A stretch of DNA of 64,000 bases from Macrostomum lignano (taxonomy: Eukaryota), in assembly GCA_002269645.1 (NCBI GenBank), contig NIVC01000035.1, positions 735,362 through 799,361 on the forward strand, given 5' to 3'. Below the pieces are notes generated by a model. That model saw only the letters and a list, made by a program, of their open reading frames with translations. It did not search any database and had not been told where the DNA came from. How positions within the stretch are numbered: the first letter of the stretch is position 1; each line of letters starts with the position of its first letter. A program made the translations under genes and the position numbers. Below, piece after piece: positions 14,621-63,499 of the stretch.

Positions 14621-15216
14621 ACAACCTGCAAGATCTCTTAATTTTTCTCCATGGCATCCAAGCATCAACAAGCACGCACCTGCATGATGCAGGCCCAGAT
14701 TAGCAAGCAATAACAGGCAAGCAACTGAATCGGTGTCTCTGTAGACAGGAAAGTGCAAATAAATAAAGTGCATCAAATTAACGCTTGCAGCATGAGACGC
14801 ACGAGAGCTGACAGCACGGGGCCTCTCTAAGTAAGTGCCCCACACTACGACAGCGAATCCAGGTTAACCATACGACGTGAAAGAGACTCAGCAGCAACTA
14901 ATGACACAACTAAACCAGGCAAGCAACACTTAGCAATTTTCCTCCTAAGCAAATCAACTTCATAAATGCATATATGTGTATTCGTGAGTCGCCCCACACC
15001 TTGAGAGGGGACTGCTGAGCGATGTCAACAGCCATGAGCATGCATGTGCACCTCGTAAGGATGCAGACTGAAGTATCCATTAATAATAGCCCACTGTATA
15101 GAGGGTGGCGATGATCTCTCTAAGGCTTCCTTGTGCTGCGTCATGCGTGAAAGCGAAAAATGCATCCCATTCCCCTTATGAATGCACATGAAAAGTACAT
15201 TTATTATGGAGTAGTA

Positions 15217-26200: not shown

Positions 26201-26244
26201 ACTCAAGCCACAGTACATCGTGTCCAATAGTCTGTTAGATCAGT

Positions 26245-34742: not shown

Positions 34743-34801
34743 GTAAAATCTTTGCCTGAGATTAGTCCCGCTACTCCCAGTTATACGCTACCGGCATTGA
34801 T

Positions 34802-36295
34802 ATGAGCGGCGTCAACAATAGCAGCATTAGTTGCTTAGCAACTCTGACGCCTAGCAGCGTTATCAATTCGCCGCAGTTTCCAGTTCGAGTTCTAGTTGCC
34901 AGCCTGTTGGCTTTGGTTGCTATGGAAACGCTGCTAGGCAACAGCCTGGTGATCGCCTCGGTAATTAGATTCCGCCGCCTACGCACCCGGAACTGTTTCC
35001 ACCTGCTGGCCTCACTGGCATCGGCCGACATCGCCATCGCTCTGATTGTCATGCCCTGCTCCATCGTGCACACGATGCTCGGCTGCTGGCCTCTGGGTGA
35101 CTTTCTCTGCAAATTCTATCAGGCCAGCGACATCATGTGCTGCACGGCCAGCATCCTGCATCTGTGCCTCATCAGTTTGGACCGCTACATTGCCGTCACT
35201 CGACCGTTGCACTATCGGAGTCTTGTCAGGCCTAGACGAATCTGGGCGACAGTGGCGCTGGTGTGGGCCGTCAGCATCGGCCTGAGCTTCGGCCCTGTCT
35301 ACTCAGGCGCTGTGCAGCAGTCGCAGTCGGACTCGAGCGACGGTCAGTGCCAGATGCAGCCAGATAGAACCTACGCCGTGGTGTCCGCGTCAACCTCCTT
35401 CTTTCTGCCAATGCTGGTGATGACCCTGGCCTACGTCCGGGTGCATCGAATCGCCACGGCTCACACCGTTGGGACCTGGAGGAGGAAAGCTCGTCGACGA
35501 TCGTGCTGCGACAAAGGCGGTGGTGGTGGCGGCGGCGGGGCCTCTGACGCCTCTTCGTCGTCGAACAGGACGGCAACGGTCACGGCTACGCTGTCGGTCG
35601 TGGTTACGACAAAGAAAAGTTCGGCCGCGGCGGTGGCAGCGGCAGCGGTTCGAGTCACCCGGCACATGACCAGCGAGACCAAGGCGACAAAGACTCTCGG
35701 CCTGATTCTCGGCTGCTTCTATGTCTGCTGGTTCCCGTTCTTCATCATGTACACGGGCTGCCCGTTCACGGCCGACCAGTGCAACAGTCTGCCGTTCTGG
35801 CTGGTGACAGCCGTCACCTGGGTGGGCTACGCCAACTCGGGCGTGAATCCGATTTTGTACTGCTCGAATCAGCGCGAGTTCCGTCTGGCGTACCTGCGCA
35901 TTCTCGGCTGCCGGACTGGTGGGCCGAGGAGCGACGGCGGCAGGCGGCTCAGCGGAGCAGCGGCGGCGGCGGCGGTGGCTACGCACGCTGCAGCGGCGCA
36001 AGCAGCGGCCTCGGCGGCAGCAACGAGTGGCGGCCGAGCAGCCGGGGGAGCGACGCTATCAGCGGCTGCGAATAGATGGTGCCTGGACGGTAGCCAGGCC
36101 AGCGGTCGTCATGGCAACGGTAGCAGCAGGCTCAGCAACAGCCACCGCTTGCTGTTGTACAATAACGACTTCAACGGAACGAATAGCCGTCCGTGTGACG
36201 GCGGAGGAGACCGCAGTAGCCGCCAGTCCGGGAACAGTTCAGCGGAGATTATCGAGCTCTGCCCATTGAATAGGCAGATACCGGCGATGCTGTGA
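34802..36295 (+). CDS. Intronless class A biogenic-amine GPCR, D1-dopamine/octopamine-like (497 aa)
   Basis: TM1 GN, TM2 LASAD, TM3 Asp in DIMCCTASILHLCLISLDRY, TM5 serines (SASTSFFLP), ETKATKTL..CWFPFF in TM6 and NSGVNPILY in TM7. The exact ligand cannot be assigned from motifs. Confidence 0.93.
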   Translation: MSGVNNSSISCLATLTPSSVINSPQFPVRVLVASLLALVAMETLLGNSLVIASVIRFRRLRTRNCFHLLASLASADIAIALIVMPCSIVHTMLGCWPLGDFLCKFYQASDIMCCTASILHLCLISLDRYIAVTRPLHYRSLVRPRRIWATVALVWAVSIGLSFGPVYSGAVQQSQSDSSDGQCQMQPDRTYAVVSASTSFFLPMLVMTLAYVRVHRIATAHTVGTWRRKARRRSCCDKGGGGGGGGASDASSSSNRTATVTATLSVVVTTKKSSAAAVAAAAVRVTRHMTSETKATKTLGLILGCFYVCWFPFFIMYTGCPFTADQCNSLPFWLVTAVTWVGYANSGVNPILYCSNQREFRLAYLRILGCRTGGPRSDGGRRLSGAAAAAAVATHAAAAQAAASAAATSGGRAAGGATLSAAANRWCLDGSQASGRHGNGSSRLSNSHRLLLYNNDFNGTNSRPCDGGGDRSSRQSGNSSAEIIELCPLNRQIPAML

Positions 36296-41589: not shown

Positions 41590-42175
41590 GTAAGTCTTAA
41601 TGCATATTAATTGCAATATTGTATAAACGAAATTTTATTGAAACTTTTGGCCAAATCATGGACATTGTGGATGGACATTGGTATAAATTGTGTTTGTTGT
41701 TATTTTAACTTGAATTTAATATTTAATACTTATCAGAATATCAGTGCTTGTATGCATCTTTAATTTCTTTAAATTTAATTTTTGATTTATATCATTAAAT
41801 GTTTTTAATTAATTACTACAAGACATTGGCATTTGTAAGTTGGTACTTTTCTGCTTTTTGTCATTTTTCTGAAAATGTACTAAGTAAAAAATCCAAGTAA
41901 TCAATGTTTATGATAAATCTAAGCTGTCAAATGAGTTAACGATCTCTGTACTTTAATTTAAATAGGATTTCTTTAAACGTTTAATCAATGCACATTTTTT
42001 ATCTTTTCATAGAATTTTAAACATTTTTTTATTGTTTTTTTAAACTTCCTGTTTTTTTCTGAACGCAGTATAACAATTAAAAAGTTAAAACTTCATAAGT
42101 TGTAATACAGCAAACTTAAATGAACTTAATGTCAAATTTTCTATCAATTTTGTTTAAAATTGATCCTGCCCGCAG

Positions 42176-42718
42176 GTTCTATCAGGCGGTAATGTGGACA
42201 TCAATGTCCGCCTCTTTGACCCCGATGGCGAGCCAGTGTTCTCAGCCGACAAAAAGACTCAGGGAGGCCGAGTGTTCTCTGTCACCAAGCCGGGAATCTA
42301 TCGCGCCTGTTTCTCAAATGAATTTTCTGCTTTAGCCAGAAAGCTGGTCTACTTTGCCCTCCGCTCGGGCCGAGAAGAGAGCGAGTCGCTGGAATTTCCG
42401 GATTTGTCGTCATCTTCATCGTCGTCCAGTTTGGATGAAGACGATCAGGAGCGCCGCAAAGTCATGCTGGATTCGATGCAGATTATCGGAGCCAACCTCG
42501 TGTCAATCTCCAATTATCAGCGCCGGATGCGGCTTAACGAGGCGGCGGACAGGTTGGCAGCGGAGGCCACACTCGGTCGGGTTGGCGCCTGGTCGCTTGT
42601 GGAGATTTTCGGCGTGGTTTCGGCGGCAGCCGCTCAGGTGCTGGCGGTGCGCAGACTCTTCCAGACCACTAGCAGCGGGACCGCGGCGCCGGCCGGACTG
42701 ATGGGCCGCCGAGCTTGA
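42176..42718 (+). CDS. p24/TMED cargo receptor (gamma, TMED3/7-like), exon 2
   Basis: CCCGCAG acceptor ending at 42175, in phase: VLSGGNVDI..DPDG, G.YRACFSNEFS...KLVYF (GOLD domain), coiled coil, TM (WSLVEIFGVVSAAAAQV) and RRLF tail. Spliced product about 230 aa. Confidence 0.9.
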   Translation, partial: VLSGGNVDINVRLFDPDGEPVFSADKKTQGGRVFSVTKPGIYRACFSNEFSALARKLVYFALRSGREESESLEFPDLSSSSSSSSLDEDDQERRKVMLDSMQIIGANLVSISNYQRRMRLNEAADRLAAEATLGRVGAWSLVEIFGVVSAAAAQVLAVRRLFQTTSSGTAAPAGLMGRRA

Positions 42719-43929: not shown

Positions 43930-44886
43930 GTCAGCAGAGAGACTGTAGAGTGTCAGGGGAGGCGTTAGCCGTTAGTGTCAGCAGAGAGACTGTAGAGTGT
44001 CAGGGGAGGCGTTAGCCGTTAGTGTCAGCAGAGAGACAGTAGAGTGTCAGGGGAGGCGTTAGCAGTTAGTGTCAGTAGAGTGTCAGGGGAGGCGTTAGCC
44101 GTTAGTGTCAGCAGAGAGACAGTAGAGTGTCAGGGGAGGCGGTAGTGTCAGCAGAGAGACAGTAGAGTGTCAGGGGAGGCGGTAGTGTCAGCAGAGAGAC
44201 AATAGAGTGTCAGGGGAGGCGGTAGTGTCAGCAGAGAGACAGTAGAGTGTCAGGGGAGGCGGTAGTGTCAGCAGAGAGACAGTAGAGTGTCAGGGGAGGC
44301 GGTAGTGTCAGCAGAGAGACAGTAGAGTGTCAGGGGAGGCGGTAGTGTCAGCAGAGATACAATAGAGTGTCAGGGGAGGCGGTAGTGCCAGCAGAGAGAC
44401 AGTAGAGTGTCAGGGGAGGCGGTAGTGTCAGCAGAGATACAATAGAGTGTCAGGGGAGGCGGTAGTGCCAGCAAAGAGACAGTAGAGTGTCAGGGGAGGC
44501 GTTAGCCGTTAGTGTCAGCAGAGAGACAATAGAGTGTCAGGGGAGGCGGTAGTGTCAGCAGAGAGACAATAGAGTGTCAGGGGAGGCGGTAGTGTCAGCA
44601 GAGAGACAATAGAGTGTCAGGGGAGGCGGTAGTGTCAGCAGAGAGACAGTAGAGTGTCAGGGGAGGCGGTAGTGTCAGCAGAGAGACAATAGAGTGTCAG
44701 GGGAGGCGGTAGTGCCAGCAGAGACAGTAGAGTGTCAGGGGAGGCGGTAGTGTCAGCAGAGAGACAGTAGAGTGTCAGGGGAGGCGGTAGTGTCAGCAGA
44801 GAGACAGTAGAGTGTCAGGGGAGGTGGTAGTGTCAGCAGAGAGACAGTAGAGTGTCAGGGGAGGCGGTAGTGCCAGCAGAGAGACA
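43930..44886. repeat. 40-bp minisatellite
   Basis: Unit GTAGTGTCAGCAGAGAGACAGTAGAGTGTCAGGGGAGGCG, with longer TTAGCCGTTA-containing variants at the left edge and once internally. Confidence 0.96.
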
Positions 44887-45830: not shown

Positions 45831-46176
45831 AGTCACTTTTGCCAAAGTCGAGCTTGAAAAGGTATAATCATACAGTATAGCAAATAAGAGTTTTGAATTT
45901 TTACATTTTTAAGAAAGTTAGTCCACTAAAAACAAGTTTTTTATCTTTGTTTTATGTTTTTATGTTTTTATGTTTGTTTTTACTACAAACAAAGATATGT
46001 ATGCCTTTAGTACGAACTATGTCTATGGGCAAGCCTGCGAGCTGAAGTTGAGCTGGATTAAAAGAGAGACAGTTCGCTAAGTTAGACGCTAACGCACGAG
46101 AAATTTACACACGGCGTAAAAGCCAGAGCCTTGAGCTGACTAAACTTCTAAGTTGCTTTACTTATGACTACGTGAT

Positions 46177-49100
46177 TTGTGCAAAGACGTAACAATGACG
46201 ACGAAGATGAAAATCAGCGAATTCTCCACCGACCAGCCAGACAAATGGGAAGCCTTCGAGAAGCGACTGGAGCAGTTGTTCATCCTGGAGAAGATTGAAG
46301 ACGAGGCCAAAAAGCGGGCTACACTGATCAAAGCAATCGGTGATGACTGCTACGCGCTGCTTCGAGATCTGGTGTCTCCTAAGAAGCCCAAGGACGAAAC
46401 GTACACGCAACTCTTCAGAAAGCGCTGCGGGATTACTTTGCTCCAAAGAAGAAACTCATTGTGGAGAGATACAACTTCTACCATCGCAACCAGAATGAAG
46501 GTGAGACTGTAAGCGATTACTTAGTGGGTCTGAGGAAGCTGGCATCAACCTGCGAATTCGATATGTTCCTAGATGATGCATTGAGAGATCGACTCGTCTG
46601 CGGCATTCGAAACAAACTAATTCAACAGCGGCTGCTCCAAGAGGACAAGCTCACACTGGATACAGCTCTGACTCTAGCAACAGCTATGGAGACTGCTGAT
46701 CGAGGGGTTGCTGCTATAGCTGGGTCGTCTGTACATACCATCAACTTGTCCAAAGGTAGCCGATCTAAGCATAGTCAAAGTACAAAGTTTGACAAAGCCG
46801 AACGCAGTGCCAAGAGTGGATGCTATCGTTGCCATGGAACTGACCATTGGGCCAAGAGTTGTCCATTGCGAGAAAAGGTTTGCTCAAAGTGTTCCAAGCA
46901 GGGACATCAAGAACGCGCATGCCGAACGAAGACCTCAAACGGAAGTGCCAGCAGACATAGGCACATACGAATTAAACCTGGATGCTGCAAGAAGACAAGA
47001 GCAGTAATGGCTGAAGACTCTGAATCTGATAGTGAAGGATCAAGTGGCGAAATACAAACTGTTCGTTGGCGCGACTGCGACATTTCAACTGTCAGCTCTC
47101 CATACAGGTGTGTGATCAAGCTGCAAGGTACAAATGTTGAGTTCAGCATCGATACAGGAGCCGACAGAACGCTAATCAACGAGCATTGCTACAAGGATAT
47201 TGGGTTGGAGCTGAGCAAGACGTCAACGCGACTGTTTAGTTACTCGAACCATGGAATTCCGACGCTCGGTGAAGCTCTAGTCGAAGTCACTCATGGAGGA
47301 CTGCAGCATAAGCTGAAAGTTTTGGTGGTTAAGGGCAACGGATCGAATTTGCTAGGAAGGGACTGGCTGAATATCCTTAAGCTGGATTGGCAGAAGGTTG
47401 TCCACGTGGCTGAAATTGGAAGCACCTTTTCACCAAAATCCATCTTTGAGGTTACCCGGAGGTGTTTTCGTCTGGACTCGGACTCATCAACAACGCGAAA
47501 GCAAGAATCATTGTTCGTGAGGATTACTGTCCGAAGTTTCACAAGAGCAGACCTGTACCGTTTGCAATGAAGAAGCTTATTGAGGATGAACTCAGTAACC
47601 TTGTCAACAAGGGGATCATATCAAAGCTGAGTTCATCAGATTGTGCTTCTCCCATTGTGCCAGTGCTGAAGAAAGATGGGAAATCACTCAGGATCTGCGC
47701 GGACTTCAAGAGGACTATTAATCCACAGCTGGAAGTGGACAAGTATCCACTGCCTCGACAGGAGGAAATGTTTGCTACTTTGAATGGTACTTTTCCAAGC
47801 TGGACATTTCTCAAGCTTTTCTGCAGCTGGAGTTAGAAGAAAGCAGCAGAAAATTTACGACCATCAATACACACTTGGGATTGTATCAGTACAATCGACA
47901 AACAATGGGCTTGGCTTCTGCTCCTGCTCAGTTCCAAGAAGCGATTGAGAAAATTCTCTGTGGACTGGAAGTTGTTGCTTACATCGATGATATTCTAATA
48001 TCGGGAAGGTCACTCGAGGAACACGATCAGAAACTGCATGAAGTGTTGAAGACACTGCAATACAGGGGTGTCAGACTCAACAAGGACAAGTGCAAGCTTC
48101 GGCTGCAAAAAGTGGAATTCATGGGTCATATTATCAATAATGACGGACTGCACCCATCTCCTGACAAGGTAATTGCTGTGCGAAACGCACCGAATCCTAC
48201 CAGTGTGTCCGAGGTTCGATCCTTGGTTGGACTTATTAACTACTATGGGAAATTCATACCCAACTCATCAACTGTTCTGGCGCCACTCAACCGACTCCTG
48301 AGAAACGATGTGACATTCCTCTGGAACAGTCAGTGCCAAGCTGCTTACTCTGTGAAGTCAATTCTGACATCGGACCGGCTGCTGGTGCATTTCGACCCAA
48401 AGAAGCCGATCATCCTACACACTGATGCTTCGAAGTATGGGCTCGGATGTGTTTTGTCCCACACAATGCCAGGTGGTGCCGAGCTGCCTATCAGTTACGC
48501 ATCAAGGACACTATCACCAGCGGAGTAGAATTATTCTCAGTTGGAAAAAGAAGCGCTATCAATCATATTCGGGATCAAGAAGTTCCATCAGTATCTATTC
48601 GGGAACAAGTTTATTTTGGTAACAGACCATAAGCCTCTAATTACTATTTTCGGAGAAAAGAAGGACATCCCGAGCATCGCAGCTAGCAGATTGCAACGTT
48701 GGGCAGTCTTGCTCTCTGCTCATCAGTATGAGATAAGATTTCGAAAGACAGAGGACCACGGCAACGCTGATGCGTTATCCAGGTTGCCATTGCCAAGTTC
48801 GACGTCCCGAGTGGACAAAGCCATGGAACGTCGACTTCAAGAACTGCCTATCACCGCTGTCGAGATTCGTCGAGAGACAGCCAGGGATCCTATTTTGAGC
48901 AAGGTAATCAGGTTCTGCCAGAACGGTTGGCCGGAGAAATGTGAATTTGAGCTTGAGATATACCGTCAGAAAGGAAACGAACTCTGTCTTGAGCAGGGAG
49001 TCATCTTCTGGGGTATACGCGCCATCATTCCATCTAGCCTCCAACACCAAGTTTTGGACCTGCTGCACGAAGGACACCCTGGGATTGTATCGATGAAATC

Positions 49101-50187
49101 GATCGCTCGCCTGCACGTTTGGTTTCCGGGAATCGACCAACAGATTGAAAGAGCTGTGGAACAATGCAAGGGATGCGAACTGCAGCGAAGCAAACCACCA
49201 GAATCTGCTGTTCACCCGTTGAGTTGGCCAGAAAAGCCATGGACGAGACTTCAGGCAGATTTTTTCGGACCGTGTTTCGGATTCAATTGGTTCGTAATCG
49301 TGGATGCCACATCAAAATGGGTAGAGGTTTTTCCAATGTAAGTCGGCAGTGCCGCGAACACCATTCAACGCTTTCGAGAGACATTTGCTCGGTTTGGAAT
49401 ACCTCGACAGATACTGACCGACAATGGAAGCCAGTTTGCATCACAGGAGTTTGCTGAATTCACCAAGCGAAATAACATCCATCACATCTTCAGTGCTGTA
49501 GGACATCCAAGAACCAACGGGCTCAGTGAGCGAATGGTTCAAACAGCCAAGAATGCGATCAGAGCAGGCATGAAGAGGCACGGTGATGCCATGCTGAGCC
49601 TGCACAATTTCCTATTCCGCTATAGAAGCACGCCTCATAGCACAACGGGCAAGTCACCTGCAGAGATGATGCTTGCGTATGCAAGGCGCACAAAGCTGGA
49701 CTTCCCGAAGCCAGACACATACGGGAGAGTCCTGGATTCGCAAAGTAAGCAGATGATGCGCCGGGAACATATTCCTCACCGAGAGTTTCAGGCTGGAGAT
49801 ATAGTGCTAGCTCTTGATTTCAGGAGGGAAAAAGAAAACAAGTGGGCTCAAGCCAAAGTGTTGAAACAGACTGGGCCGCTGTCCTACCACGTGGAAGTCA
49901 ACGGACAAATCTAGAAACGACACGTGGATCATCTGATCAAATCTGAAACCGAAGTTGTGCCCCAGCCACAGTGTGATTTCGACACAGAACTAACGCAAGC
50001 ACACAATGCCAAGAATAGCTACAAGTTGAAAAAGGATGCAAAAGAGGAAGCTGAATCGACGGGACCAAATCTAGAGCATCATGGTCAGACTGGCAAGTCT
50101 TCGCGGGCCATAGAAAAAACTCGAAAGTTAGCCGCGTCATCAAGCTTCGATATCAAGCCAAAGGACGGCCAAGATGTGAAACAGTAG
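46177..50187 (+). pseudogene. Degenerate Ty3/Gypsy (Mag-like) gag-pol
   Basis: Gag W..F.KRL..LF, ER..F..R.Q..GE, LRDRLVCG and two CCHC knuckles; protease IDTGAD; RT AYIDD; RNase H TDASKYG; integrase HEGHPG, C..C, TDNG, NGLSER. About three frameshifts and in-frame stops at 48526, 49339 and 49912; no 3' LTR or PPT seen. Confidence 0.92.
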
Positions 50188-50621: not shown

Positions 50622-52218
50622 GGGATCGGATTCCCCGAGCGATATTCCAGATCGATATTCGGAAACAACACAGATACTAATATAACTAGATGGGCCACTC
50701 AGGCATAGGTACTTAGTAAAACTGCTTTCTACTTTCAGTTCAGTAGCAAAGAAGAATACATAAGCTATTTTATAAAAATAAAGACGGCTGAAACGACTGA
50801 TAAGTTTTGAAGCCCAAAGCTTGCAGGCGTAAACAGCTTGCTAATTGGTTCAGCAATAATGTACATTGGCCAGTCCACTGAAATGTACATGGCCGCTTTA
50901 GGCTGGAATTACGAGAAATGCAATAAAAATTTGGGGCGGGGCGGTGGGTAGTGTGGAAAGGCGCGGTTGGAGGGTTTAAGCGAGGGGGGGTAAGAGCCAA
51001 TAAATGAGCCGTGGCTTTAAAAATGAATTAAAATGCTTCGGTTTGACTTACTACTGAACTGAAAGTAGCTTACATGCAAATTTGCAGTGGCCCATCTAGT
51101 TATTCTAGTATCTGGGGGAAACAACAAAAATCTCTGCTTTTAAAGCACCAAATGCCATGATTTTTTACAGAAAAAACATCACCCACGAGATAAACTGACT
51201 TGAAAAAAATCAAGATTGAAAGATTGAAAGGATTTTTTACAATTTGCAAAAAACTGGTGCTTCCCTATCTCCACAGTGTATTAAATTGATATTCGATTTC
51301 GAGTACTTCTGCTTGCTCTCTGTCGCTGAAAATTGACATGCAGGGCTTCACCCAGACACTAATCGATTATCATAACTCAAACTGAACTCAAAGCTTCATG
51401 CTCGAGAACTATTCGAGAAAAACTGATGTTCCTTTTTCTACAGTATAGTGTAACATTTTTTATTGAGTTGAAAGTTTTTTTTGCACTGAATAAATTATAA
51501 TTTAAATGAAATTCAATTAGCTTTTTAGTCTAAATCCTTTAATTAAATAATAACTTAATCATTAGGTTAAAATAGCGGACGCAACACTCGCCGATTGTGG
51601 AAAAAAGTTTAAAAGGCATGTTACAGCATAGCACGCGCATTTTCATCTAGCAAAAATGAAGCAAAACAAGCAGTTTTTGTTTCTTTCTGCTGTTAAATGC
51701 ATTCTATGGGTCACATTGTAAACCAAATGCTTTGAGTTCAGTTTGAGTTAATATGATAATCGATTAGTGTCTGGGTGAAGTCCTGCATGTCAATTTTCTG
51801 CGACAGCTGTGAGCAAGCAGAAGTACTCGAAATCGAATATCAATCTAATACACCGTGGAGATAGGATCACATCAGTTTTCTCGAATAGTTCTCGAGCATG
51901 AAGCTTTGAGTTCAGTTTGAGTTATGATAATCGATTAGTGTCTGGGTAAAGCCCTGCATGTCAGTTGTCAGCGACAGAGAGCTAGCAGAAGTACTCGAAA
52001 TCGAATATCAATTTAATACACTGTGGAGATAGGGAAGCACCAGTTTTTTGCAAATTGTAAAAAATCCTTTCAATCTTTCAATATTGATTTTTTTCAAGTC
52101 AGTTTATCTCGTGGGTGATGTTTTTTCTGTAAAAAAATCATGGCGTTTGGTGCATTAAAAGCAGAGATTTTTGTTATTTCCGTATATCGATCCTGAATAT
52201 CGCTAGGGAATTATCCCC
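50622..52218. mobile_element. Long-TIR (foldback/Mutator-like) non-autonomous element
   Basis: About 350-bp imperfect inverted arms: left 50622-50668 plus 51117-51428 (split by a MITE), right 51870-52218. An extra partial arm copy lies at about 51728-51865. TSD not identified. Confidence 0.8.
50669..51116. mobile_element. 448-bp MITE of the same P-like TIR family as 17388-17981
   Basis: TIR C(A/C)CAGATACTA(A/G)(T/A)ATAACTAGATGGGCCACT; 8-bp TSD GGAAACAA at 50661-50668 and 51117-51124. Confidence 0.87.
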
Positions 52219-53913: not shown

Positions 53914-54920
53914 TGTCGTAGGCCTTTTGGCTCTCTATAAGAATTTCACCGTTATGCCACCAAGTTGTCGTAGATGTTTCACCTCCTACTTTATCAATTT
54001 TAATCTCACCGCTGATACCAAAGTTGTACTAGGTGTGTTTCCTGTGCACTGAGAATCCTACTAGATGCCACCAAAGTTGTAACAGGGGTGATTCTTTCTT
54101 CTTAATAATAATTTCACACTGTCACCAAAAGCTATCACAGGGCTAATTTACTAATCTCTTAAGTTGGTAGCTGCCACCAGGATTATCCTATTAATAAATT
54201 GTGAGTTTATCAATCTTAGAATAATCCGAGAAATGTTTCTTAGAATAGGTCTGGGTATTTAGTCTGAGTATTTAGTCTGAGTATTTAGTCTGAGTATTTA
54301 ATCTGAGTATTTAGTCTGAGTATTAGTCTTAGAAAAACTGTTAGCCCTGAGATTTAACTCTTCTAATTATTCTGGTAGCGTTCTATTATTCTGGTAGTGT
54401 TCTACTTAATAATGGCCTGAGCGGTATTTTGGCTTACTGGTATATGTATTTCATGTACTTTGCAAGTCCTTGGGCGTTACCGAGATCAGAGGGTCACAGC
54501 CTCCGGTTATTCTTACACGTATTACTTCAGATCTACTTCGCAACTTCTTACTACTCAACACTTTCCTTCTTAGTAGTATATATGGTCCACACTTCCGTCT
54601 ACTTCACTCTTACTTCTTGAAAGGAATTAACACAGAAAACACTTCTTCAATTCTTATTTTCTCGGAACTCTTACTATTCGTTATAACTGTATTATTAGTG
54701 AACCGCGATGCGCGAGGTTGGCAAGTTGCTCCTTCCTCCGCTGAAATTTGCTTGTATTTATAGTAAAATTCTAGTAGATTTTAAACAAAAATTAGTTCGC
54801 GTAAAATATTATACAAAACACGAATATTAAAACAAAAATGCGTCGTAGTTATTTGGCGTGAATTTAAAATGTAATAACCGATAGCTATTTTTAGAAAGAA
54901 ATCGGGAGGGGCCCTTTACA
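53914..54920 (-). repeat. 3' LTR of Gypsy element
   Basis: Direct repeat of 62493-63499 (offset 8579); the only difference I saw is 54398 T vs 62977 C. Confidence 0.97.
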
Positions 54921-54933
54921 ACCTGCCTCCCCT
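54921..54933 (-). promoter_or_regulatory. Polypurine tract of Gypsy element
   Basis: Minus strand AGGGGAGGCAGGT, preceded by a T run, directly abuts TGTAAAGGG of the 3' LTR. Confidence 0.85.
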
Positions 54934-55269
54934 AAAAAAAAATTTTTAAACGAGCTTACTACAGTCTACTATAAGTATGCGAGTGCAAAAATTTTAAAAT
55001 GCAAGAAAAGGTGCATAAACGAAGTGCTAAAAACTAAACAATTTGTGAATACTACGTGCAATAGTCATGAGCAAAGTATTAGGCACAAAATTATGTGATA
55101 AAGGCATAAAACAAAACAATCGGATAAGCAGTAAAGTGATAGATCATGTGTGGCAATTACCATTGAATAAAACAGAAAAACTAGTAAACTAGATTTGGAA
55201 GATTAGAAACAACATAGAAAAATACGATGGAAACGATCGGAAAAGCACACCGGTAATAAGAAAACCTGC

Positions 55270-56346
55270 CTAGAATTTGCAAGGGTTCGGGAGTTCGCGA
55301 AAATAGGGCCAGCCTAGGAGGCCAAAAATCCACCGCAATTCAATGTTTAGTAGGCGTCGCTGGGTTACCTGAGAATCAGCTCTCATGATGCGCTGGAGCT
55401 CTTCGGCGATGTGCTGGAGAAGCGCCACTGCCTCGGTTGATGAGCATAGTTCGCGCAGCGCTCTGATGGCGGCCCAAGCCTGCGAACGTTGCGGCAGCGC
55501 TTGATCTAAGCGCAAGTGGCCGATGCGCTGCAAATATTGCATCAGGCCGAAACGAACTCGTTCGACCGGCTCGCCTGTCTCGATGAGGCGTTGTGCCACC
55601 TCCTGGTAGCTTCCTGCGAGCTCAGGTCGTGGCGGTCGTGGTGCAGCGGCAGCGGCGGCTTGCTGACGGGGCGCGGCGGCGGCGACCTGCTGGCGCGGTG
55701 CAGCGGCGGCGGCGGCCTGCTGGCGAGGTGTAGCAGCGGCCTGCTGGCGCGGTGTAACGACGGCAGCGGCCTGCTGGCGCGGTGCAGCGGCGGCGGCGGC
55801 CTGCTGGCGAGGTGTAACGACGGCGGCTGCGGCATGCTGGCGTCGCCCCGATGGTGGAGCACTTGCTGGGGGCTGGAGCTGAACTGTCCGTCGCTCGAAT
55901 GCTGCGCTGCTGGCTGCCGATCCTTGACTCGAAGGTGCCGCATAAACTCGCACAGGAGCAGCGGCGGCGGCCTGCAGGATGGCTGCCCGCTTCGGTGGTG
56001 TCGGCCCGTCCACCTGCAGTCGTTGGCTCGACGTTGGCGATGGCGGCCTCGGCCGCTTGCTGGAGTCTCCTGGAAGCTTTGGTCGTGTTGAGCAACGTAA
56101 TGGTGCCTCGATCTCCGCTGATGCTGACGGTCTCTCTCGCGGGCTTGACGCGCTCGGGGCTGGCGGAGTCGGCGGTCTTGGAGCTGGAGCGGGCGGCGGA
56201 GTCGGCGGTCTTGGAGCTGGGGCGGGCGGCGGAGTCGGCGGTCTTGGCGCTGGAGCCGGCTGTCTCGGTGCTTCGTCTTCTGACAGGTCGCTATCTGACA
56301 GGGCTCCGCCCAGCAATTCTTCCAAAATATCGTCAACGTGGCTCAT
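55270..56346 (-). CDS. Accessory ORF3 of the Gypsy element (358 aa, non-envelope, unknown function)
   Basis: Uninterrupted ATG-to-stop ORF, sense with gag-pol. Acidic N-terminus, PAPAPRPPTPP x3, PRQQAAAA repeats and a ~100-aa helical-looking C-terminus. No signal peptide or long TM segment. Confidence 0.8.
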   Translation of the reverse strand: MSHVDDILEELLGGALSDSDLSEDEAPRQPAPAPRPPTPPPAPAPRPPTPPPAPAPRPPTPPAPSASSPRERPSASAEIEAPLRCSTRPKLPGDSSKRPRPPSPTSSQRLQVDGPTPPKRAAILQAAAAAPVRVYAAPSSQGSAASSAAFERRTVQLQPPASAPPSGRRQHAAAAVVTPRQQAAAAAAPRQQAAAVVTPRQQAAATPRQQAAAAAAPRQQVAAAAPRQQAAAAAAPRPPRPELAGSYQEVAQRLIETGEPVERVRFGLMQYLQRIGHLRLDQALPQRSQAWAAIRALRELCSSTEAVALLQHIAEELQRIMRADSQVTQRRLLNIELRWIFGLLGWPYFRELPNPCKF

Positions 56347-56430
56347 ATTCGCTATAACAGAATTTCTAGTCTCCTAAGAACGAACTAATTGCTGTGAAAT
56401 ATGAGGTTTTGTGAGCTCTATGGGGTTTCG

Positions 56431-56559
56431 TATTTATATGCGGCCAGCCGAAAAACTGGACCGCATCGTTGTGTTCGCGCTTTCGAAGGGGTTTTAATGG
56501 GGTCACGTGTCCGTCAACCATAGTGGCTTTCTAGCGTTCGCTTCGCGGGCTCTCATTGG
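56431..56559 (-). promoter_or_regulatory. Candidate internal promoter of ORF3
   Basis: On -: CCAAT (56555-56559), CACGTGAC E-box (about 56502-56509) and TATAAATA (56431-56438), about 85 nt before the ORF3 ATG. Confidence 0.55.
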
Positions 56560-56881
56560 CTCAGAGCAGCGCACCGTTGCTAAGCGTTGCTAGGATTATT
56601 TATTGTCTTCGGATTCCTTCACACAATTCTCTCATTTCTACTACTAGTAATGCGCAATGTTTTTGTGTTTTTATATTTTTAAACTTTTTATATTTTTGTC
56701 AATTTTTATTATTTACAACAGATTTCTATATACAGAGCAATTTTTTAAGCAAATTCTATTTACAATTTGATACTTGATATGGTACAAATTCGATCATTTC
56801 AGATAATGGCCGTATCGCCTGCGGGGGGCGAATCCTGAGGTGACAACTCTCTCACTTCTTGGTCTCAAATTATAATGCGGC

Positions 56882-59800
56882 CTATGCTTCAATCCTTTCG
56901 TCTTCATTTCTTTCTCTCCTATCTAATTCTAATGCATCATCTGTTTCGGCTGGCTCAGTTTTCTCACTATCTGTTGACTCATCTTCTTGTTCAAATTCTT
57001 CTTCGTTTGGTTCTATCTCATTCTGCTCAATCTCATCGTCATTCGGATTGATTGCCCTGGTTCTCCACTGGATTTTTTCGTCTTCGGAACTTTCGCTTAA
57101 TACTTCGACTGGCTCCATCTGTTTTCCTGTCCGTTTTGGCTGTCGCTGTTGCTGTGGCCTTCTCTTAATTTTCAGTTCCTTCTTTTTCTGATTGTTAGTT
57201 GGCTTTTCTTTCGGTTCTGCTTCTTTGTTCTGTTTATCCGGCAAGTCTATTTCTGAGTTAGGCACTGGGGTGAGATTGTTCCGATGCACGAGCATCTTCT
57301 CGCCGCTTCTCACTCCGTCTATCTCTCTTTGCACTCGAAAGACTGTTTCAGAAATTTGCGCAAGTACCCTGAATGCTGCTCTTTTCTTGCGATGGAACTT
57401 GTGACTTTCCTCGCTATGTAACTGCGGATTATTGATCAATGCGAGGCATCCAACCGGTACATGCTTCGGTGGTTTATTCTCAGCATTGTCTCCTTCTCGT
57501 CGGTCTCTTACTTTTTCCAACTTTTTCTGCACGATTTTCTGCGCTTCTTCAAGTCTTTCGGCATGACTCAGCACGTAGCTTGGATAGTCATAGTATAGCC
57601 TAGGTTTTCGGATAATGCTGTCAATTCTGAGGTCTGCTTCTCTGCCAAATAGCAGGTAGTGCGGGGTGAACCCGGTAGTCTGGTTCACACTGGTACGCAC
57701 AGCTACCAAAGCTGCGGGAATTAGCAGATCCCAATCGGAATGGTCTTTCTCTACTAGGCACGTTATTATCGACTTTATCTGCTTATTGAATCTCTCCACG
57801 AGTCCATTACTCTGCGCGTGATACGGTGTAGTACAGGTATGCTTGATGCCATACATCCTACAGAATGCCTGGAACTGACGGCTGACGAATGTCTTGCCAT
57901 TGTCGGTGTGGATCCACTGGCATTGTCCGTATTCGCTAAAGATTCTCTCTTGTATAACCTTAATCACTGTATCCGATTTCTGATTTCGCACTGGAAACGC
58001 AAAAGGAAACCGAGTGGTGCTATCTACTACTGTCAGTACGTAGCGATGACCTCGTCGGCTCTCTTTCGAGATCGGTCCTATCAGGTCAATATGAAGCCTA
58101 TGAAACGGTTCGCATATTGGAAAGGACTGCACTGGCGCCTTCACCTTGTTTCCTGCCTTACTCTCTAAACACGGAATGCATTCCGAAATATACTTCTCTA
58201 CTGCAGTTGCTAGCCCTGGTCGCCAAAATCGATCGCGTACACGTTGCAGTGTTTTATCACGACCCAGGTGACCTGCGAGAGGACTGTCATGCAACTCTCG
58301 GAAAACCTCTCTCTCTATATTCTCTGGCAACACGACCTTTCTTGTCCCGTCTTCGTCTATGGTCAAAAGTTCATCTTCTAGCTTCATCTGCTGATAGAAC
58401 TTCGCCATCTGCTTCAGCTCTCTAGCTGCATCTCCTGGTAATTCCGGCTCTCGGATCTTCTGCTCTTTCCAAGCTATCAGCGTCCTTGTAGAAGGGTTGT
58501 CACGCTGAGCTGATGTCAGCTGCTCCTTCTTAAGCGGGACGAAGAGATAGTCGGTCAGGAGTTTCCGACAAGCGGTTCCCTCAAAACTCTCTTCCGCATC
58601 CTCATACACTTCTTCATCATCAGCGAAATAGTCGCTGGCGTCTTCGTACTCATCTTCTTCGTCTTCGAAATACTCTCTTGCATCCTCGTACTCTTCATCT
58701 CCTTCCACTTCTTCTCTAATCGGATCGGTCTGGCAGCTCTGGTGCTTGCAGCTTGAGATTTCGGTCTGACTTCGGTTTACCGTAACGGTAGGAGTTTTCC
58801 TACCTGGACCTGTCTCAGCTTTGATGCACTTTTCTGCCTTAGCCTCCTGATTATTCTCTAATCGTTCTGCGGGTCGTCTGGATAGTCCGTCTGCATTGGT
58901 GTGTTTAGCACCGCTGCGATGTTCAATGTCATATTGAAATTCGCTTAACCTCTCGATCCATCTACCGAGGATTCCCTGCGCTTCAGTCTGGCGAAGTAAC
59001 CACAGAATAGCGCGATGGTCTGTTCTTGCCAGGAATCTCTTTCCGATGAGATAGAATCGGAAGTGTTTCATTCCGTCAACTAATGCTAGCAATTCTTTTC
59101 TCGTGATTGGATACCTCTTTTCTGATTCCTTCATGGCTCTGCTAAAGTACGCAATGGGTCTTTCGACTCCATCGGATTGTATCTGACCTAAGCAGGCTCC
59201 GATTCTATCATCACTCGCATCAGTGTCAAGCACCATTCGCACTTCTTCGTTGTCTGTGAACTCTGGGTAGGCTAGAACTTCGGTTGATGTCATTTTCTGC
59301 TTTAGTAGCGCAAAGGCCTCATCATGGCTCTTAGTCCATTTTTCTTTAAAATTCTGAATTCCCTTCTTAGTTAGCTGGAAGAGCGGGTGCGCTGCTTCTG
59401 CGTAATTCTTCACGAACCTGCAGTAATAGTTACAAAGGCCTAGGAAGCTTCTTAATTCTTTAACGTCCTTAGGCGTCGGCCATGACTGGATTGCTTCTAT
59501 CTTAGCTGGATCTGTCTTAATTCCTTCTCTGCCAACTATGTGTCCTAGGTACTTAAGTTCCTTCTGGAATAGATTACATTTCTTCGGCCTTAACTTTAAT
59601 CCGGCCGTTACTAGTCTCTGGAATACTTCACGTAAATGACTTAAGTGATCTTCGAATTTCTCTGAATAGGTTACTATGTCGTCAATGTAAGACATAGCGA
59701 ACTTGTGCTGAATTCCCATTAATACTAAATTCATTAATCGCTGGAATGTTCCAGGTGCGTTTGATAGTCCCTGCGCCATGACCTGATACTCGAACTGTCC

Positions 59801-61366
59801 CCTAGTCAAAGTCGAAAATGCCGTCATAAATTTGTCCTCTTCCTTAATCGGTACCTGCCAATAGCCTGAATTTAAGTCTAAGCTGCTAAAGTACTGGCTT
59901 CCCGTTAGATGAGAGAAGGTCTCTTGAATATTCGGCAACGGATATGGATAATAGTTAACTCGAGAGTTCAAGACTCTGAAATCGCTGACAATCCTAATCG
60001 TTCCATCTTTCTTAGGCACAATTACTAATGGCGTCGAATAGGTGCTATAGCATGGTCTTATCAAATTCTTAGCGAGCATATCGTCTAACTGTTCGTCTAC
60101 TTGTTTCTGCAGATGCGGTGGTATTCTGCGAGTAGGTATTCTGACTGGCGTCGAGTCCTTTAACGATATCTCGTGAGTCACAAGATGCGTGAGACCCATG
60201 TCTTGATTCGTCTGCGAAAATGCCTTTCTATTCTCTTTGAGTAGCTCGACTACTTTGTCTTTCTGCACTGGTGTTAGCTCATTCGAGATGTTAACCTCCT
60301 GAATCCATTCATCGGCATCCTCAGTATTTTCAGTGCATTTCGCGGAATTGACTTGTCCGGTGTTTTTCTTAGCAACAAAGTATGTTAGCTCTTTGGCTTT
60401 CAATGGCTTGGCAATGCCTACCATTGCTGATTTTCTAATTGTTACGTCATTGCTCTGTCTGTTAATTACTTCTACTACTCCTGTTCCGTCTTTCATCGTT
60501 AGTAGGGTTGGAACCATATCCAATGAGTCTTCGTTTACTGGAATATGTCCTTTAGTCGTCTCGATCATCATCGGCGTACCGTAGTTCACTTCTGCTCTTT
60601 TGGCTAATTTGACTGGTATTCTTAAAGCACTATTAGCTGGTACAACTACTTTGTCATGGCAGTATACTCGGCAAACTCGTACCGGCAACTTAGTAAACTG
60701 CATTGGAATACATTCTCCTGTTTTTAAAATCATCATTCCTTTGTCAAAGCTCATACTCTCGCAAAAGTTCATGAAGAACTCCATTCCTAGAATATCATCG
60801 CATTCGTGATTGCACAGCAGGAATTCGGTCTCAATCTCTATCTCTCCGAACATTACTGTCACTGACACTTCTCCTTCGATCTGTACTCTTGCTCCATCGA
60901 AAGCGGTTACTCTCCGATCAGATGGCCTGATCTCCTGTTCTCTGCATACTCTTCTCCAAGTACTCTTACTTAAGAAGTTGTGACCGGCTCCTGTGTCTAG
61001 TAAGAAACGGATGTTCTGCTTACGAATCTTTCCATCGATAACTGCTTCTCTTCCTTTCTTCTCTGCGCTAGTAATAACTTCTTCATCTGCACTTTCATTC
61101 ATCTTGACGTACTCTTCTCTCGGGCTTGGAGTACTTTTCTTAGGTGAGCAAATAGGTGCACGCGTAGTATTTACATTTGGTACTGTATGTGCATTCACAT
61201 GTTTTTTGTTTGGTTTTCTGAACTTATTATAATCTTCGCATGGCTTATACATGTACTGTTTGCTAACTTTGTACGCATTATTTACAAATTCAGAGGCCTG
61301 GATTTTGCTCTGGATTTCGCTGGAGGGACGTGGCCTCGTAATTCGGCCCTCGCTTCTCAGTTTCCC
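56882..61366 (-). CDS. Gypsy Pol (protease, RT, RNase H, integrase), translated by -1 frameshift from gag
   Basis: FLLDTGAG, YIDD, LDTDASD, H..H/C..C, LHIDLIG, HTDNG, NGLVER. The frame stays open from the slippery site through the ORF-track start at 61252 to the stop at 56882. Confidence 0.95.
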   Translation of the reverse strand, partial: GKLRSEGRITRPRPSSEIQSKIQASEFVNNAYKVSKQYMYKPCEDYNKFRKPNKKHVNAHTVPNVNTTRAPICSPKKSTPSPREEYVKMNESADEEVITSAEKKGREAVIDGKIRKQNIRFLLDTGAGHNFLSKSTWRRVCREQEIRPSDRRVTAFDGARVQIEGEVSVTVMFGEIEIETEFLLCNHECDDILGMEFFMNFCESMSFDKGMMILKTGECIPMQFTKLPVRVCRVYCHDKVVVPANSALRIPVKLAKRAEVNYGTPMMIETTKGHIPVNEDSLDMVPTLLTMKDGTGVVEVINRQSNDVTIRKSAMVGIAKPLKAKELTYFVAKKNTGQVNSAKCTENTEDADEWIQEVNISNELTPVQKDKVVELLKENRKAFSQTNQDMGLTHLVTHEISLKDSTPVRIPTRRIPPHLQKQVDEQLDDMLAKNLIRPCYSTYSTPLVIVPKKDGTIRIVSDFRVLNSRVNYYPYPLPNIQETFSHLTGSQYFSSLDLNSGYWQVPIKEEDKFMTAFSTLTRGQFEYQVMAQGLSNAPGTFQRLMNLVLMGIQHKFAMSYIDDIVTYSEKFEDHLSHLREVFQRLVTAGLKLRPKKCNLFQKELKYLGHIVGREGIKTDPAKIEAIQSWPTPKDVKELRSFLGLCNYYCRFVKNYAEAAHPLFQLTKKGIQNFKEKWTKSHDEAFALLKQKMTSTEVLAYPEFTDNEEVRMVLDTDASDDRIGACLGQIQSDGVERPIAYFSRAMKESEKRYPITRKELLALVDGMKHFRFYLIGKRFLARTDHRAILWLLRQTEAQGILGRWIERLSEFQYDIEHRSGAKHTNADGLSRRPAERLENNQEAKAEKCIKAETGPGRKTPTVTVNRSQTEISSCKHQSCQTDPIREEVEGDEEYEDAREYFEDEEDEYEDASDYFADDEEVYEDAEESFEGTACRKLLTDYLFVPLKKEQLTSAQRDNPSTRTLIAWKEQKIREPELPGDAARELKQMAKFYQQMKLEDELLTIDEDGTRKVVLPENIEREVFRELHDSPLAGHLGRDKTLQRVRDRFWRPGLATAVEKYISECIPCLESKAGNKVKAPVQSFPICEPFHRLHIDLIGPISKESRRGHRYVLTVVDSTTRFPFAFPVRNQKSDTVIKVIQERIFSEYGQCQWIHTDNGKTFVSRQFQAFCRMYGIKHTCTTPYHAQSNGLVERFNKQIKSIITCLVEKDHSDWDLLIPAALVAVRTSVNQTTGFTPHYLLFGREADLRIDSIIRKPRLYYDYPSYVLSHAERLEEAQKIVQKKLEKVRDRREGDNAENKPPKHVPVGCLALINNPQLHSEESHKFHRKKRAAFRVLAQISETVFRVQREIDGVRSGEKMLVHRNNLTPVPNSEIDLPDKQNKEAEPKEKPTNNQKKKELKIKRRPQQQRQPKRTGKQMEPVEVLSESSEDEKIQWRTRAINPNDDEIEQNEIEPNEEEFEQEDESTDSEKTEPAETDDALELDRRERNEDERIEA

Positions 61367-62370
61367 TGATTATTCTGACGATTCGGCATCTGCGGAACGT
61401 TCTGCTTGGCACTCCTGCACTGCTTTGCAATGTGGCCGATCTTCCCGCAGTTATAGCAAGTCTGCGGATGTTGTCTCGGCTGACCCTGGTTCAGGTGCTG
61501 CTGCCGGGCGAACATTTGCTGTGGCGCCTGCGCTCCATACTGTGACCGAACAGGCTGCAGCTGTTGAGGCTGGTATCTCTGCGGATACTGCCTGGCTACT
61601 TGAGCATATGAATAATTCTGCGGGTATTGCTGATTATTCTGCATCTTCTCTTCTCTTAGCTCCTGCAAGGCCTTCTTCTGCTGTTCGATTTCAAACTTCT
61701 GCTTCTTAATGATCTCTTCCAGCCTTTCCTGTTCAGCCCTCTTCTGTTCTTGCTCTTCCTCATTCCTAGCCACTCTCATACCTGAATTCCTGCGGGACAT
61801 GTTCCAGGCTGCTTCCATTCTCCTCAACATCCTTCTGGCTTCCTGTAGATTAGCTGGCTGAGCGAAGATCAGTTTCTCGCGGGTTTCCGGTAGAATTCTG
61901 ACACCCTTGATGAATTGTTCCACGATCTCCTCTTCCCGCTGTTCCACAGTCATGTTCGGGAAGGCTCGCGAAGCTAGCTCAATTAAACAGTCGGTGTACG
62001 ATTCTACTAACTCATTCCTGCCTTGCATTCGGCCTCTAAATTCTTCTCTAAACTCTGCTGAACTTCCGATTCTTCCAAAGCGCTCTATAAGTCTCTCCTT
62101 AAATTCTTCGTACTCCAGATCATCTGGGAGGTTCAGACGCTGAACTGCTGCAAACGCAGTAGCCAGGTCGAGGTTCGCGAGAAGCTCTTGCTTCCGGTGA
62201 TCTTCTTCAATTCCCTCAGCTTCACAGCGCTGGTCAAACGCAGTCAGCCAAATCCTAATATCTTGGCCAGGCGTGAATTTCTGGATTTTCACATGCCTTT
62301 GCGGCCCTAATTCTAATCTGTTTCGTAGCTCTTCAGCTAACATAGCGATTGCATCGTTGGCATTGGCCAT
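61357..62370 (-). CDS. Gypsy Gag (337 aa)
   Basis: Capsid-like F....D...W...F and FR...Q...E.V..Y motifs; CCHC knuckle CYNCGKIGHIAKQC. Confidence 0.94.
   Translation of the reverse strand: MANANDAIAMLAEELRNRLELGPQRHVKIQKFTPGQDIRIWLTAFDQRCEAEGIEEDHRKQELLANLDLATAFAAVQRLNLPDDLEYEEFKERLIERFGRIGSSAEFREEFRGRMQGRNELVESYTDCLIELASRAFPNMTVEQREEEIVEQFIKGVRILPETREKLIFAQPANLQEARRMLRRMEAAWNMSRRNSGMRVARNEEEQEQKRAEQERLEEIIKKQKFEIEQQKKALQELREEKMQNNQQYPQNYSYAQVARQYPQRYQPQQLQPVRSQYGAQAPQQMFARQQHLNQGQPRQHPQTCYNCGKIGHIAKQCRSAKQNVPQMPNRQNNQGN
61360..61366 (-). promoter_or_regulatory. -1 ribosomal frameshift heptamer G GGA AAC
   Basis: In the correct phase immediately before the gag TGA; the -1 frame reads GKLRSEG... 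into MYKPCED of Pol. Downstream GAGGG/CCCTC and GGCC/GGCC pairings are possible. Confidence 0.88.
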
Positions 62371-62471
62371 CTCTCTTCTACTGTTCCTAAAAGAAATTTC
62401 TCACTGATGATTTTCAATTGCCGGAGTTCTTCGCCGTTTCTCTGATCTGTTCGATTCTGGCCGTTTCTCTG

Positions 62472-62489
62472 ATCCCACCGCTGCCACCA
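62472..62489 (-). promoter_or_regulatory. Primer-binding site, tRNA-Leu
   Basis: TGGTGGCAGCGGTGGGAT begins 3 nt after the 5' LTR and is complementary to the 3' end of eukaryotic tRNA-Leu(AAG/UAG) (...AUCCCACCGCUGCCACCA). Confidence 0.92.
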
Positions 62490-62492
62490 AGT

Positions 62493-63499
62493 TGTCGTAG
62501 GCCTTTTGGCTCTCTATAAGAATTTCACCGTTATGCCACCAAGTTGTCGTAGATGTTTCACCTCCTACTTTATCAATTTTAATCTCACCGCTGATACCAA
62601 AGTTGTACTAGGTGTGTTTCCTGTGCACTGAGAATCCTACTAGATGCCACCAAAGTTGTAACAGGGGTGATTCTTTCTTCTTAATAATAATTTCACACTG
62701 TCACCAAAAGCTATCACAGGGCTAATTTACTAATCTCTTAAGTTGGTAGCTGCCACCAGGATTATCCTATTAATAAATTGTGAGTTTATCAATCTTAGAA
62801 TAATCCGAGAAATGTTTCTTAGAATAGGTCTGGGTATTTAGTCTGAGTATTTAGTCTGAGTATTTAGTCTGAGTATTTAATCTGAGTATTTAGTCTGAGT
62901 ATTAGTCTTAGAAAAACTGTTAGCCCTGAGATTTAACTCTTCTAATTATTCTGGTAGCGTTCTATTATTCTGGTAGCGTTCTACTTAATAATGGCCTGAG
63001 CGGTATTTTGGCTTACTGGTATATGTATTTCATGTACTTTGCAAGTCCTTGGGCGTTACCGAGATCAGAGGGTCACAGCCTCCGGTTATTCTTACACGTA
63101 TTACTTCAGATCTACTTCGCAACTTCTTACTACTCAACACTTTCCTTCTTAGTAGTATATATGGTCCACACTTCCGTCTACTTCACTCTTACTTCTTGAA
63201 AGGAATTAACACAGAAAACACTTCTTCAATTCTTATTTTCTCGGAACTCTTACTATTCGTTATAACTGTATTATTAGTGAACCGCGATGCGCGAGGTTGG
63301 CAAGTTGCTCCTTCCTCCGCTGAAATTTGCTTGTATTTATAGTAAAATTCTAGTAGATTTTAAACAAAAATTAGTTCGCGTAAAATATTATACAAAACAC
63401 GAATATTAAAACAAAAATGCGTCGTAGTTATTTGGCGTGAATTTAAAATGTAATAACCGATAGCTATTTTTAGAAAGAAATCGGGAGGGGCCCTTTACA
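62493..63499 (-). repeat. 5' LTR of Gypsy element
   Basis: On -: TGTAAAGGG...CTACGACA; TATAAATA at 63334-63341; internal 13-bp repeat (GAGTATTTAGTCT, about 6 copies) and the PBS-like array. Confidence 0.97.

Follow-up and report, generated by a model that had tools for sequence, protein, structure and literature searches.

A non-env accessory gene family of Macrostomum lignano Gypsy elements that travels with the U3 as a swappable cassette

What does a Gypsy-type retrotransposon encode between pol and its 3′ LTR when the product is not an envelope protein? The window, a 64,000-nucleotide stretch of Macrostomum lignano contig NIVC01000035.1, contains such a reading frame (ORF3; 55270..56346, minus strand; 358 aa plus stop), which an earlier note on this DNA described as an intact sense ORF in the env position and interpreted as a nuclear regulator or anti-silencing factor. 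The frame and its location between pol and the 3′ LTR are confirmed here, and we describe it as a non-env accessory gene. Cassette swapping, satellite elements, a candidate internal promoter and a host-fixed derivative are new relative to that note.

The element carrying ORF3 lies on the minus strand at 53914-63499 (9586 bp, LTR to LTR), and all its features are given on that strand. Its LTRs (5′, 62493..63499; 3′, 53914..54920; each TG..CA and 1007 bp) differ by a single mismatch over 1007 bp, and the 4-bp target site duplication ATAA is present at both flanks. A tRNA-Leu-like primer binding site (PBS) is located at 62472..62489, which we take to be complementary to tRNA-Leu; no tRNA gene was found in the 27 loci checked. 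A polypurine tract lies at 54921..54933. The open gag frame (61357..62370; 337 aa with a CCHC knuckle) terminates on a G GGA AAC slippery-type heptamer and overlaps, in the -1 frame, an open pol (56882..61369; 1495 codons stop to stop; PR, RT, RH and IN) with Pfam matches to gag-asp_proteas, RVT_1, RT_RNaseH, Integrase_H2C2 and rve. The order gag, then pol as PR-RT-RH-IN, together with the TG..CA LTRs, target site duplication, PBS and polypurine tract, is that of Ty3/Gypsy, and the element is young and intact. With regard to the Gmr1/Osvaldo clade in the sense of the available text of PMC12801592, RT identity to loci carrying the Mlig-id38 LTR motif is only 45-47%.

The U5 end of the 3′ LTR holds five PBS-like units of ~55 bp, starting at 54179, 54127, 54073, 54020 and 53962. 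Such arrays occur in both LTRs of the window element (53914-54200 and 62493-62780) and in most relatives, with five units in the former and up to six in the latter, each unit mimicking the LTR end plus the PBS. The true PBS of the clade is perfect in some copies, while other versions of it carry mismatches beyond ~11-12 nt. The repeated units could be tRNA-fragment decoys or re-priming relics.

Elsewhere the window contains, on the plus strand, a second, frameshifted Gypsy-type gag-pol (46168-49914), a 1534-codon ORF resembling a BEL/Pao polyprotein (26239-30843), and two host-like ORFs named by inspection, one aminergic GPCR-like (34766-36295) and one p24/TMED-like (42164-42718). Long minisatellite arrays (30-bp x341, 27-bp x73 and 40-bp x20) and a ~1-kb inverted-repeat MITE-like element are found within 2883-17187, 43930-44886 and 51117-52181.

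Architecture and relatives of ORF3

The window protein has no R-x-[KR]-R furin site, no NxS/T glycosylation site, and no transmembrane or signal segment (maximum 19-residue hydropathy 1.03), in agreement with the earlier description. In an alignment of 34 proteins (32 from the M. lignano assembly, G000, and 2 from Logan), none contains a hydrophobic segment (maximum 19-aa hydropathy 0.27-1.11), and each has 1-5 cysteines, unlike a Cys-rich env-type ectodomain. The acidic N-termini, the low hydropathy and the lack of furin and glycosylation sites in the window protein do not fit an envelope protein of the errantivirus or retrovirus type.

Four parts of ORF3 are conserved: an acidic N-terminus, two central motifs and a C-terminal domain (C-domain), the remainder being family-specific low-complexity filler. 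The acidic segment (56275..56346) contains the DDILEELLGGALSDSDLSEDE motif seen earlier and forms an amphipathic helix at residues 4-11 in the full-length model; its acidity is conserved across types, the first 30 residues having a net charge of -7 to -11 in 32/32 aligned G000 proteins. The central motifs (55942..56109) are PxRxxTRP..KR, at residues 80-98 and present in 30/34 proteins, and a KRAAxLxxxA..PV helix (RAxLLxxQA-type), at residues 118-135 and present in 27/34. The basic PPKR patch reported previously corresponds to TPPKR at residues 116-120, and the basic motifs are conserved. The tandem repeats to which the earlier note also drew attention are present in the window (33 bp x3.1 at 56157-56260; ~30 bp x7 at 55640-55842), but these particular repeats are not conserved, and the filler differs from family to family.

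The C-terminus (55273..55608, residues 247-358), noted before as helical-looking, is predicted by AlphaFold2 to be a confident five-helix bundle (mean pLDDT 88, pTM 0.81). Residues D281, P285, L297, W339, W346 and P353 are invariant, and six conserved arginines (R263, R274, R279, R287, R295 and R298) cluster at helix 2-loop-helix 3. The domain is basic in 32/32 G000 proteins (charge +2 to +9, pI 8.6-11.1) and neutral in the two Logan proteins, and its conserved GW sits in a confidently folded region (pLDDT 83-96). Beyond the C-domain, the full-length model (pTM 0.41) has helices only at residues 4-11 and 118-128 in an otherwise disordered chain, and packing of the central motifs onto the C-domain was not seen in it.

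The view that this domain is unrecognised withstood every comparison made. Pfam gave no match for the window ORF3 and a best E of 0.019 for 27 aligned C-domains; the best E against PDB sequences was 0.4; and Foldseek searches of the C-domain model against PDB and BFVD returned nothing at E<=0.001. VIA-align reached a best Z of 7.1 (cobalamin cap four-helix bundles, KaiA), which is below the meaningful level for helical bundles. The ESM Atlas yielded no usable match, searches of word-indexed proteins came back either empty or with a single chimeric gene model, and neither a metagenome scan nor Rfam gave a match. Nothing in Pfam, PDB or BFVD pointed to homology with Tas or Tax. When 1.84 billion proteins were searched with a profile, 9 matched, five of them labelled Macrostomum lignano (a label also borne by proteins identical to ORF3s of G000) or from such chimeric models; P0007, P0009 and P0010 were rejected as repeat-protein noise. 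One further match is a Logan cluster, and the family is thus also found beyond the G000 assembly, since the best G000 counterpart of this cluster is only 44% identical. The C-domain is a new protein family.

Within G000, the last 116 residues of ORF3 found 148 matches down to 27% identity, and a distant member used as query found 151, in part overlapping the 148; both counts are lower bounds. We retrieved and inspected 93 ten-kb stretches anchored on such matches, some of which hold fragments only. Wherever an element is recognisable, ORF3 follows pol in the same orientation and precedes the 3′ LTR, and the pol of these elements is 60-96% identical to that of the window element. Sister lineages at ~60% RT identity (L149-L163) also have an ORF of 240-280 aa behind pol. 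One such ORF, type A (83 matches in G000), can be aligned to the domain of ORF3 across 99 columns (hhalign P 1.8e-4, a score equalled by 0/100 block shuffles). The other two types, B and C, sit on a single pol group; in the one comparison made, type B showed no homology to ORF3 (P 0.76). A third ORF is absent from elements with the published Mlig-id38 LTR, and the RT tree does not settle the branching order of the three lineages. Several sister elements have a reverse-strand TATA just within the 3′ LTR, a hint of possible antisense transcription in these lineages.

Selection on ORF3 and its exchange as a cassette

ORF3 is under purifying selection. In Nei-Gojobori counts for 24 hand-picked, non-independent pairs, dN/dS is 0.05-0.27 in the 17 pairs with estimable dS, while synonymous sites are saturated in the other 7 (dN 0.10-0.32); Fisher p<0.05 was obtained for 22/24. 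For the window ORF3 and L022, which with L023 looks like one duplicated older copy, dS is 0.52 and dN 0.039. Distant pairs filtered to dS<1.5 gave a median of 0.43 and values up to 0.94, which we read as a saturation artefact rather than as positive selection. Together with the 148 C-domain matches, this selection indicates that ORF3 is more than a chance ORF.

Of the 42 elements with an LTR identity of 99% or more, 36 have an uninterrupted ATG-to-stop ORF3, a figure inflated because the set was chosen for an intact C-terminus. It is open in 22 of the 24 young pol-bearing elements, 11 of which have an uninterrupted pol, and in 14/18 young elements lacking pol. ORF3 is intact in three of ten DNA matches at >=88% (the window, L015 and L017), many close copies being frameshifted; L019-L021 are a single old insertion in three homologous loci. 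The earlier note would have abandoned its reading had other young copies lacked the ORF; it is found clade-wide, though broken in 7/10 of the closest DNA matches.

ORF3 travels with the U3 as a swappable cassette, old types being found on near-identical gag-pol. We typed 66 C-domains, broken ones dropped, at a threshold of 88% nucleotide identity and obtained 34 types. The 29 pol-bearing elements form 7 pol groups that carry 20 ORF3 types, three of these groups carrying 4, 6 and 6. Between the window element and L060, gag-pol is 91-99% identical while ORF3, spacer and U3 are unalignable, and the same contrast holds for L059 against L071, L076 and L110; for L101 and L064, dS is 0.03 in RT and 1.30 in ORF3. 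These comparisons indicate that the gag-pol backbones are homogenised while old cassettes persist, through either balancing selection or backbone sweeps. The U3 is at least 85% identical in 31/37 pairs of the same ORF3 type, compared to 7/1188 pairs of different types, a co-variation that linkage alone can explain, since ORF3 and U3 adjoin. Young recombinants (L076, whose LTRs are 100% identical, L018 and L079) combine one ORF3 type with the U3 of another, and the L024 ORF3, ~74% identical to that of the window and of a different type, shares its U3 with it; a strict lock-and-key specificity is argued against by these mismatched U3s. Few splits are common to the ORF3, RT and IN trees, yet none of their conflicts has strong support, since resolution of pol inside groups is poor.

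Cassettes are also carried by 18 young pol-less elements (from the set with LTRs at least 99% identical), mostly of 4-6 kb, which we call satellites. Their layout is LTR, a distinct ~195-aa gag-derived ORF (broken in some), a common non-coding middle, the candidate ORF3 promoter, ORF3 and LTR; CCC..AAAAGGGCCGTTTTA is repeated three times in the middle part. The short gag (L015:4706-5296 and 18 other loci) has a GHCFFC..PGPIRPQAGHxC knuckle, and its ~195-aa product has no match in Pfam. It is itself under purifying selection (dN/dS mostly ~0.1-0.2, dS up to 3), which argues that the satellites are an old lineage. A single satellite backbone bears four ORF3 types (L015, L024, L062 and L097), two of which are identical in type to autonomous partners. 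A long RFX-like host ORF lies beside the satellite insertion at L024 (1088-2710 of the oriented locus).

Candidate promoters, sequencing contigs and host-fixed copies

Conserved motifs upstream of ORF3 suggest an internal promoter at 56431..56604. This candidate region contains AATAAA (56599-56604), CCTAGCAAC (56586-56594), which we take to be an RFX-like site, CCAAT (56555-56559), CACGTG (56504-56509), the conserved GATGCGGTCCAG (56456-56467) and TATAAATA, a putative TATA (56431-56438). GG(T/A)CCAG occurs at -104 to -135 in 15/28 representatives; where both motifs are present (nine representatives), the TATA follows 24-25 nt downstream in eight and 16 nt downstream in one. A strict TATA at -140..-60, found in 14/28 representatives compared to 21/84 control windows, is weak evidence when taken alone. 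The NCBI model P0002 takes as its start a Met that precedes the putative TATA, and read-through RNA fits equally well for that reason.

The short U3 of the 3′ LTR (54755..54920, with a TATA box at 54755-54762), which co-varies with ORF3 type, carries TTGTT(T/A)(T/A)A repeats and E2F-like sites. Across the U3s of 24 loci, the repeat occurs 48 times compared to 4.3 in shuffles (~11-fold), 47 times on the same strand and in 21 of the loci; E2F-like sites number 32 compared to 5.7, and TTCnnnGAA, counted on both strands, 22 compared to 2.4. These motifs, which presumably resemble host Fox/Sox, E2F and STAT sites, are common to different cassette types. In the candidate internal promoter their enrichment is slight (8 compared to 2.9 in shuffles, shuffle maximum 8), and that of the window has none.

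Contigs from four presumed RNA runs match portions of ORF3 with 99-100% identity, but transcription, strand, level and start are not derivable from them; the greater contig depth at the LTR R-U5 adds up many copies and was not used. The ids Mlig016073, 008906, 008543 and 026206 were not found in the main texts searched, in three supplementary files of PMC5730564 or in five of PMC12801592; tables using other ids may bear on tissue expression.

Three homologous host loci (L199:5042-5398, L200:5021-5377 and L201:4913-5269) retain the candidate ORF3 promoter, which is stronger support for it than the TATA counts, and an open, C-domain-only ORF of 118-119 aa. This ORF lacks the acidic N-terminal part of ORF3 as well as its final ~15 residues. 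No gag, pol or clade LTR was found near this ORF at any of them. The three differ by 1-4 synonymous and 1-2 conservative replacement changes, too few for a selection test. All are annotated as genes by NCBI; Mlig gene models were built from RNA-seq (available text of PMC5730564), and we infer that the BOX15 ids belong to this set. The loci are a candidate domesticated inhibitor. At L019, L020 and L021, a truncated element (promoter region, broken ORF3 and LTR) is arranged head-to-head with a host ORF for a SET-domain (SETD2-like) protein, which begins a few hundred bases away, and this truncated element may act as a bidirectional promoter. Capture of the SET-domain or RFX gene by an element was rejected, as the host genes adjoin the insertions.

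Possible functions of ORF3

We put at about even the chance that ORF3 is a nuclear factor that raises LTR transcription, by direct activation or by blocking silencing. In such a mechanism, ORF3 would be transcribed from its own internal promoter, and its basic motifs would carry it into the nucleus. There, the basic face of the C-domain would bind either the DNA of the U3 itself or a host factor already sitting on it; the TTGTT(T/A)(T/A)A repeats are a candidate target. The acidic helix would recruit co-activators, and the LTR would make genomic RNA. Satellites might retain ORF3 because it turns on satellite and helper alike, and cassette diversity might last because rare types evade host silencing. 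The purifying selection, the acidic N-terminus, the basic C-domain with its six arginines, the lack of a membrane segment, the co-variation of ORF3 with U3, the enriched U3 repeat, the spacing of the upstream motifs, the host loci and the intact ORF3 of most young satellites count in favor. The fold searches, which found no likeness to a known DNA-binding fold, count against, as do the linkage of ORF3 and U3, the recombinants with mismatched U3, the sharing of U3 motifs across types, the weak TATA signal, the start of P0002, the neutral C-domain of the Logan proteins and the broken ORF3 of most of the closest copies. Acidic helices and basic patches say little on their own, because many types of protein show them. 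What stands of the original interpretation is thus a conserved, selected, non-env protein that keeps its acidic and basic motifs, while the regulatory role itself is one that we infer.

The basic helical domain and the Arg-rich disordered motifs would also suit a protein acting after transcription, either as an RNA-binding export or protection factor (Rev/Rex-like) or as a suppressor of piRNA/RNAi. A cis-preferring RNA factor would account for retention in satellites, and the PBS-like U5 repeats and mismatched PBS variants suggest small-RNA pressure. We consider this role unlikely, as an acidic amphipathic N-terminus kept in all G000 types is unexpected for it, and the position of the conserved GW in a folded region makes an Argonaute hook improbable. 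ORF3 could instead alter the state of the host cell, for example by driving stem or germ cells into cycle, or could be selfish in a poison/antidote manner with the cassettes as specificity types; the discrete old types on homogenised backbones, the many short linear motifs and the excess of E2F-like U3 sites point this way. The cassette holds no second gene, and close pairs show purifying rather than positive selection, leaving such a role quite improbable.

A particle-related or integration-tethering protein, such as one that chaperones Gag or stands in for env in spread from cell to cell, would explain both the env position and the retention of ORF3 beside a short gag in satellites. It is very unlikely given that 0/34 proteins have a hydrophobic segment (maximum 1.11) and that ORF3 types are freely exchanged while Gag and IN stay nearly identical, an argument against tight contact with either. 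That ORF3 is a neutral frame derived from repeats, a leftover of env or a host exon captured not long ago is scarcely credible: GC-rich repeats do hold several frames open and many close copies are frameshifted, but synonymous sites are saturated at low dN, the predicted fold is confident, and a remote homolog is found at this position in another lineage, whose RT is 60% identical. Nor is there any env-like feature or match to a host or env family, the finding that would have overturned the earlier interpretation.

For the preferred reading, a nuclear factor acting on the LTR, one of the closest parallels is foamy virus Tas (Bel1), which has an acidic activation region and activates both promoters. 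The available text of PMC7828637 shows Tas as an accessory ORF that immediately precedes the 3′ LTR and has an internal promoter; window ORF3 is similarly a sense ORF adjoining the 3′ LTR, and its internal promoter is a candidate one. Unlike Tas, it belongs to a non-enveloped Gypsy element, shows no sequence or fold match, has its acidic part at the N-terminus, and comes in many cassette types with satellites. Oikopleura Tor3b/Tor4b are also animal LTR elements that express a third ORF (env) from a promoter after or within pol (PMC4402516, available text), but the Tor product is a membrane glycoprotein, whereas ORF3 has no membrane segment. The Arabidopsis VANDAL anti-silencing proteins VANC21 and VANC6 are accessory proteins tied to short repeated motifs of their own elements and diversify at the family level (PMC6719617, available text); VANDAL is a plant DNA transposon and its VANC proteins act on DNA methylation, no homology was found, and the U3 motif here is common across ORF3 types rather than type-specific. 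Plant Retand elements have lineage-wide extra ORFs between POL and the 3′ LTR (TRP28), proposed to be regulatory and also found with non-autonomous elements (PMC11963269, available text); these are antisense and plant-specific, whereas ORF3 is sense to gag-pol and has no Pfam match. The bdelloid rotifer elements Juno, Vesta and TelKA are animal and Gypsy-like with diverse non-env ORF3s, and a pol-less non-autonomous rotifer family likewise keeps its ORF3 (PMC5408684, available text). The rotifer proteins (GDSL, DEDDy, coiled-coil/TM or env, described as spliced) differ from the all-helical orphan described here, whose model and lack of a Pfam match do not fit the alpha/beta catalytic domain of the GDSL and DEDDy types. 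By analogy, ORF3 might work like Tas or VANC.

As an accessory gene family, ORF3 seems not to have been described before, and the dynamics of its cassettes are unusual. Element-encoded regulators are textbook knowledge for complex retroviruses and plant VANDAL transposons; our literature search turned up none described for a non-retroviral LTR element of an animal, nor any account of a Macrostomum retrotransposon ORF3 or a flatworm LTR-retrotransposon third ORF. The available text of PMC12801592 mentions no ORF, non-autonomous, envelope or accessory component, although an earlier M. lignano classification cited there could mention the ORF, and the available text of PMC13524379 does not mention Macrostomum. 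M. lignano has transgenesis and a working LTR-reporter assay (PMC12801592, available text), which makes self-activation or counter-silencing by simple retrotransposons directly testable in the host.

It is possible, if doubtful, that a non-enveloped animal Gypsy lineage independently evolved the logic of complex retroviruses, with an activator of new fold, an internal promoter, dozens of old swappable cassettes exchanged with Gag-only satellites, and an activation-less host copy serving as a dominant-negative brake. Whatever the biochemistry, a hypervariable ORF3 and U3 on homogenised gag-pol, with satellites and a host-fixed derivative, make up a compact arms-race system.
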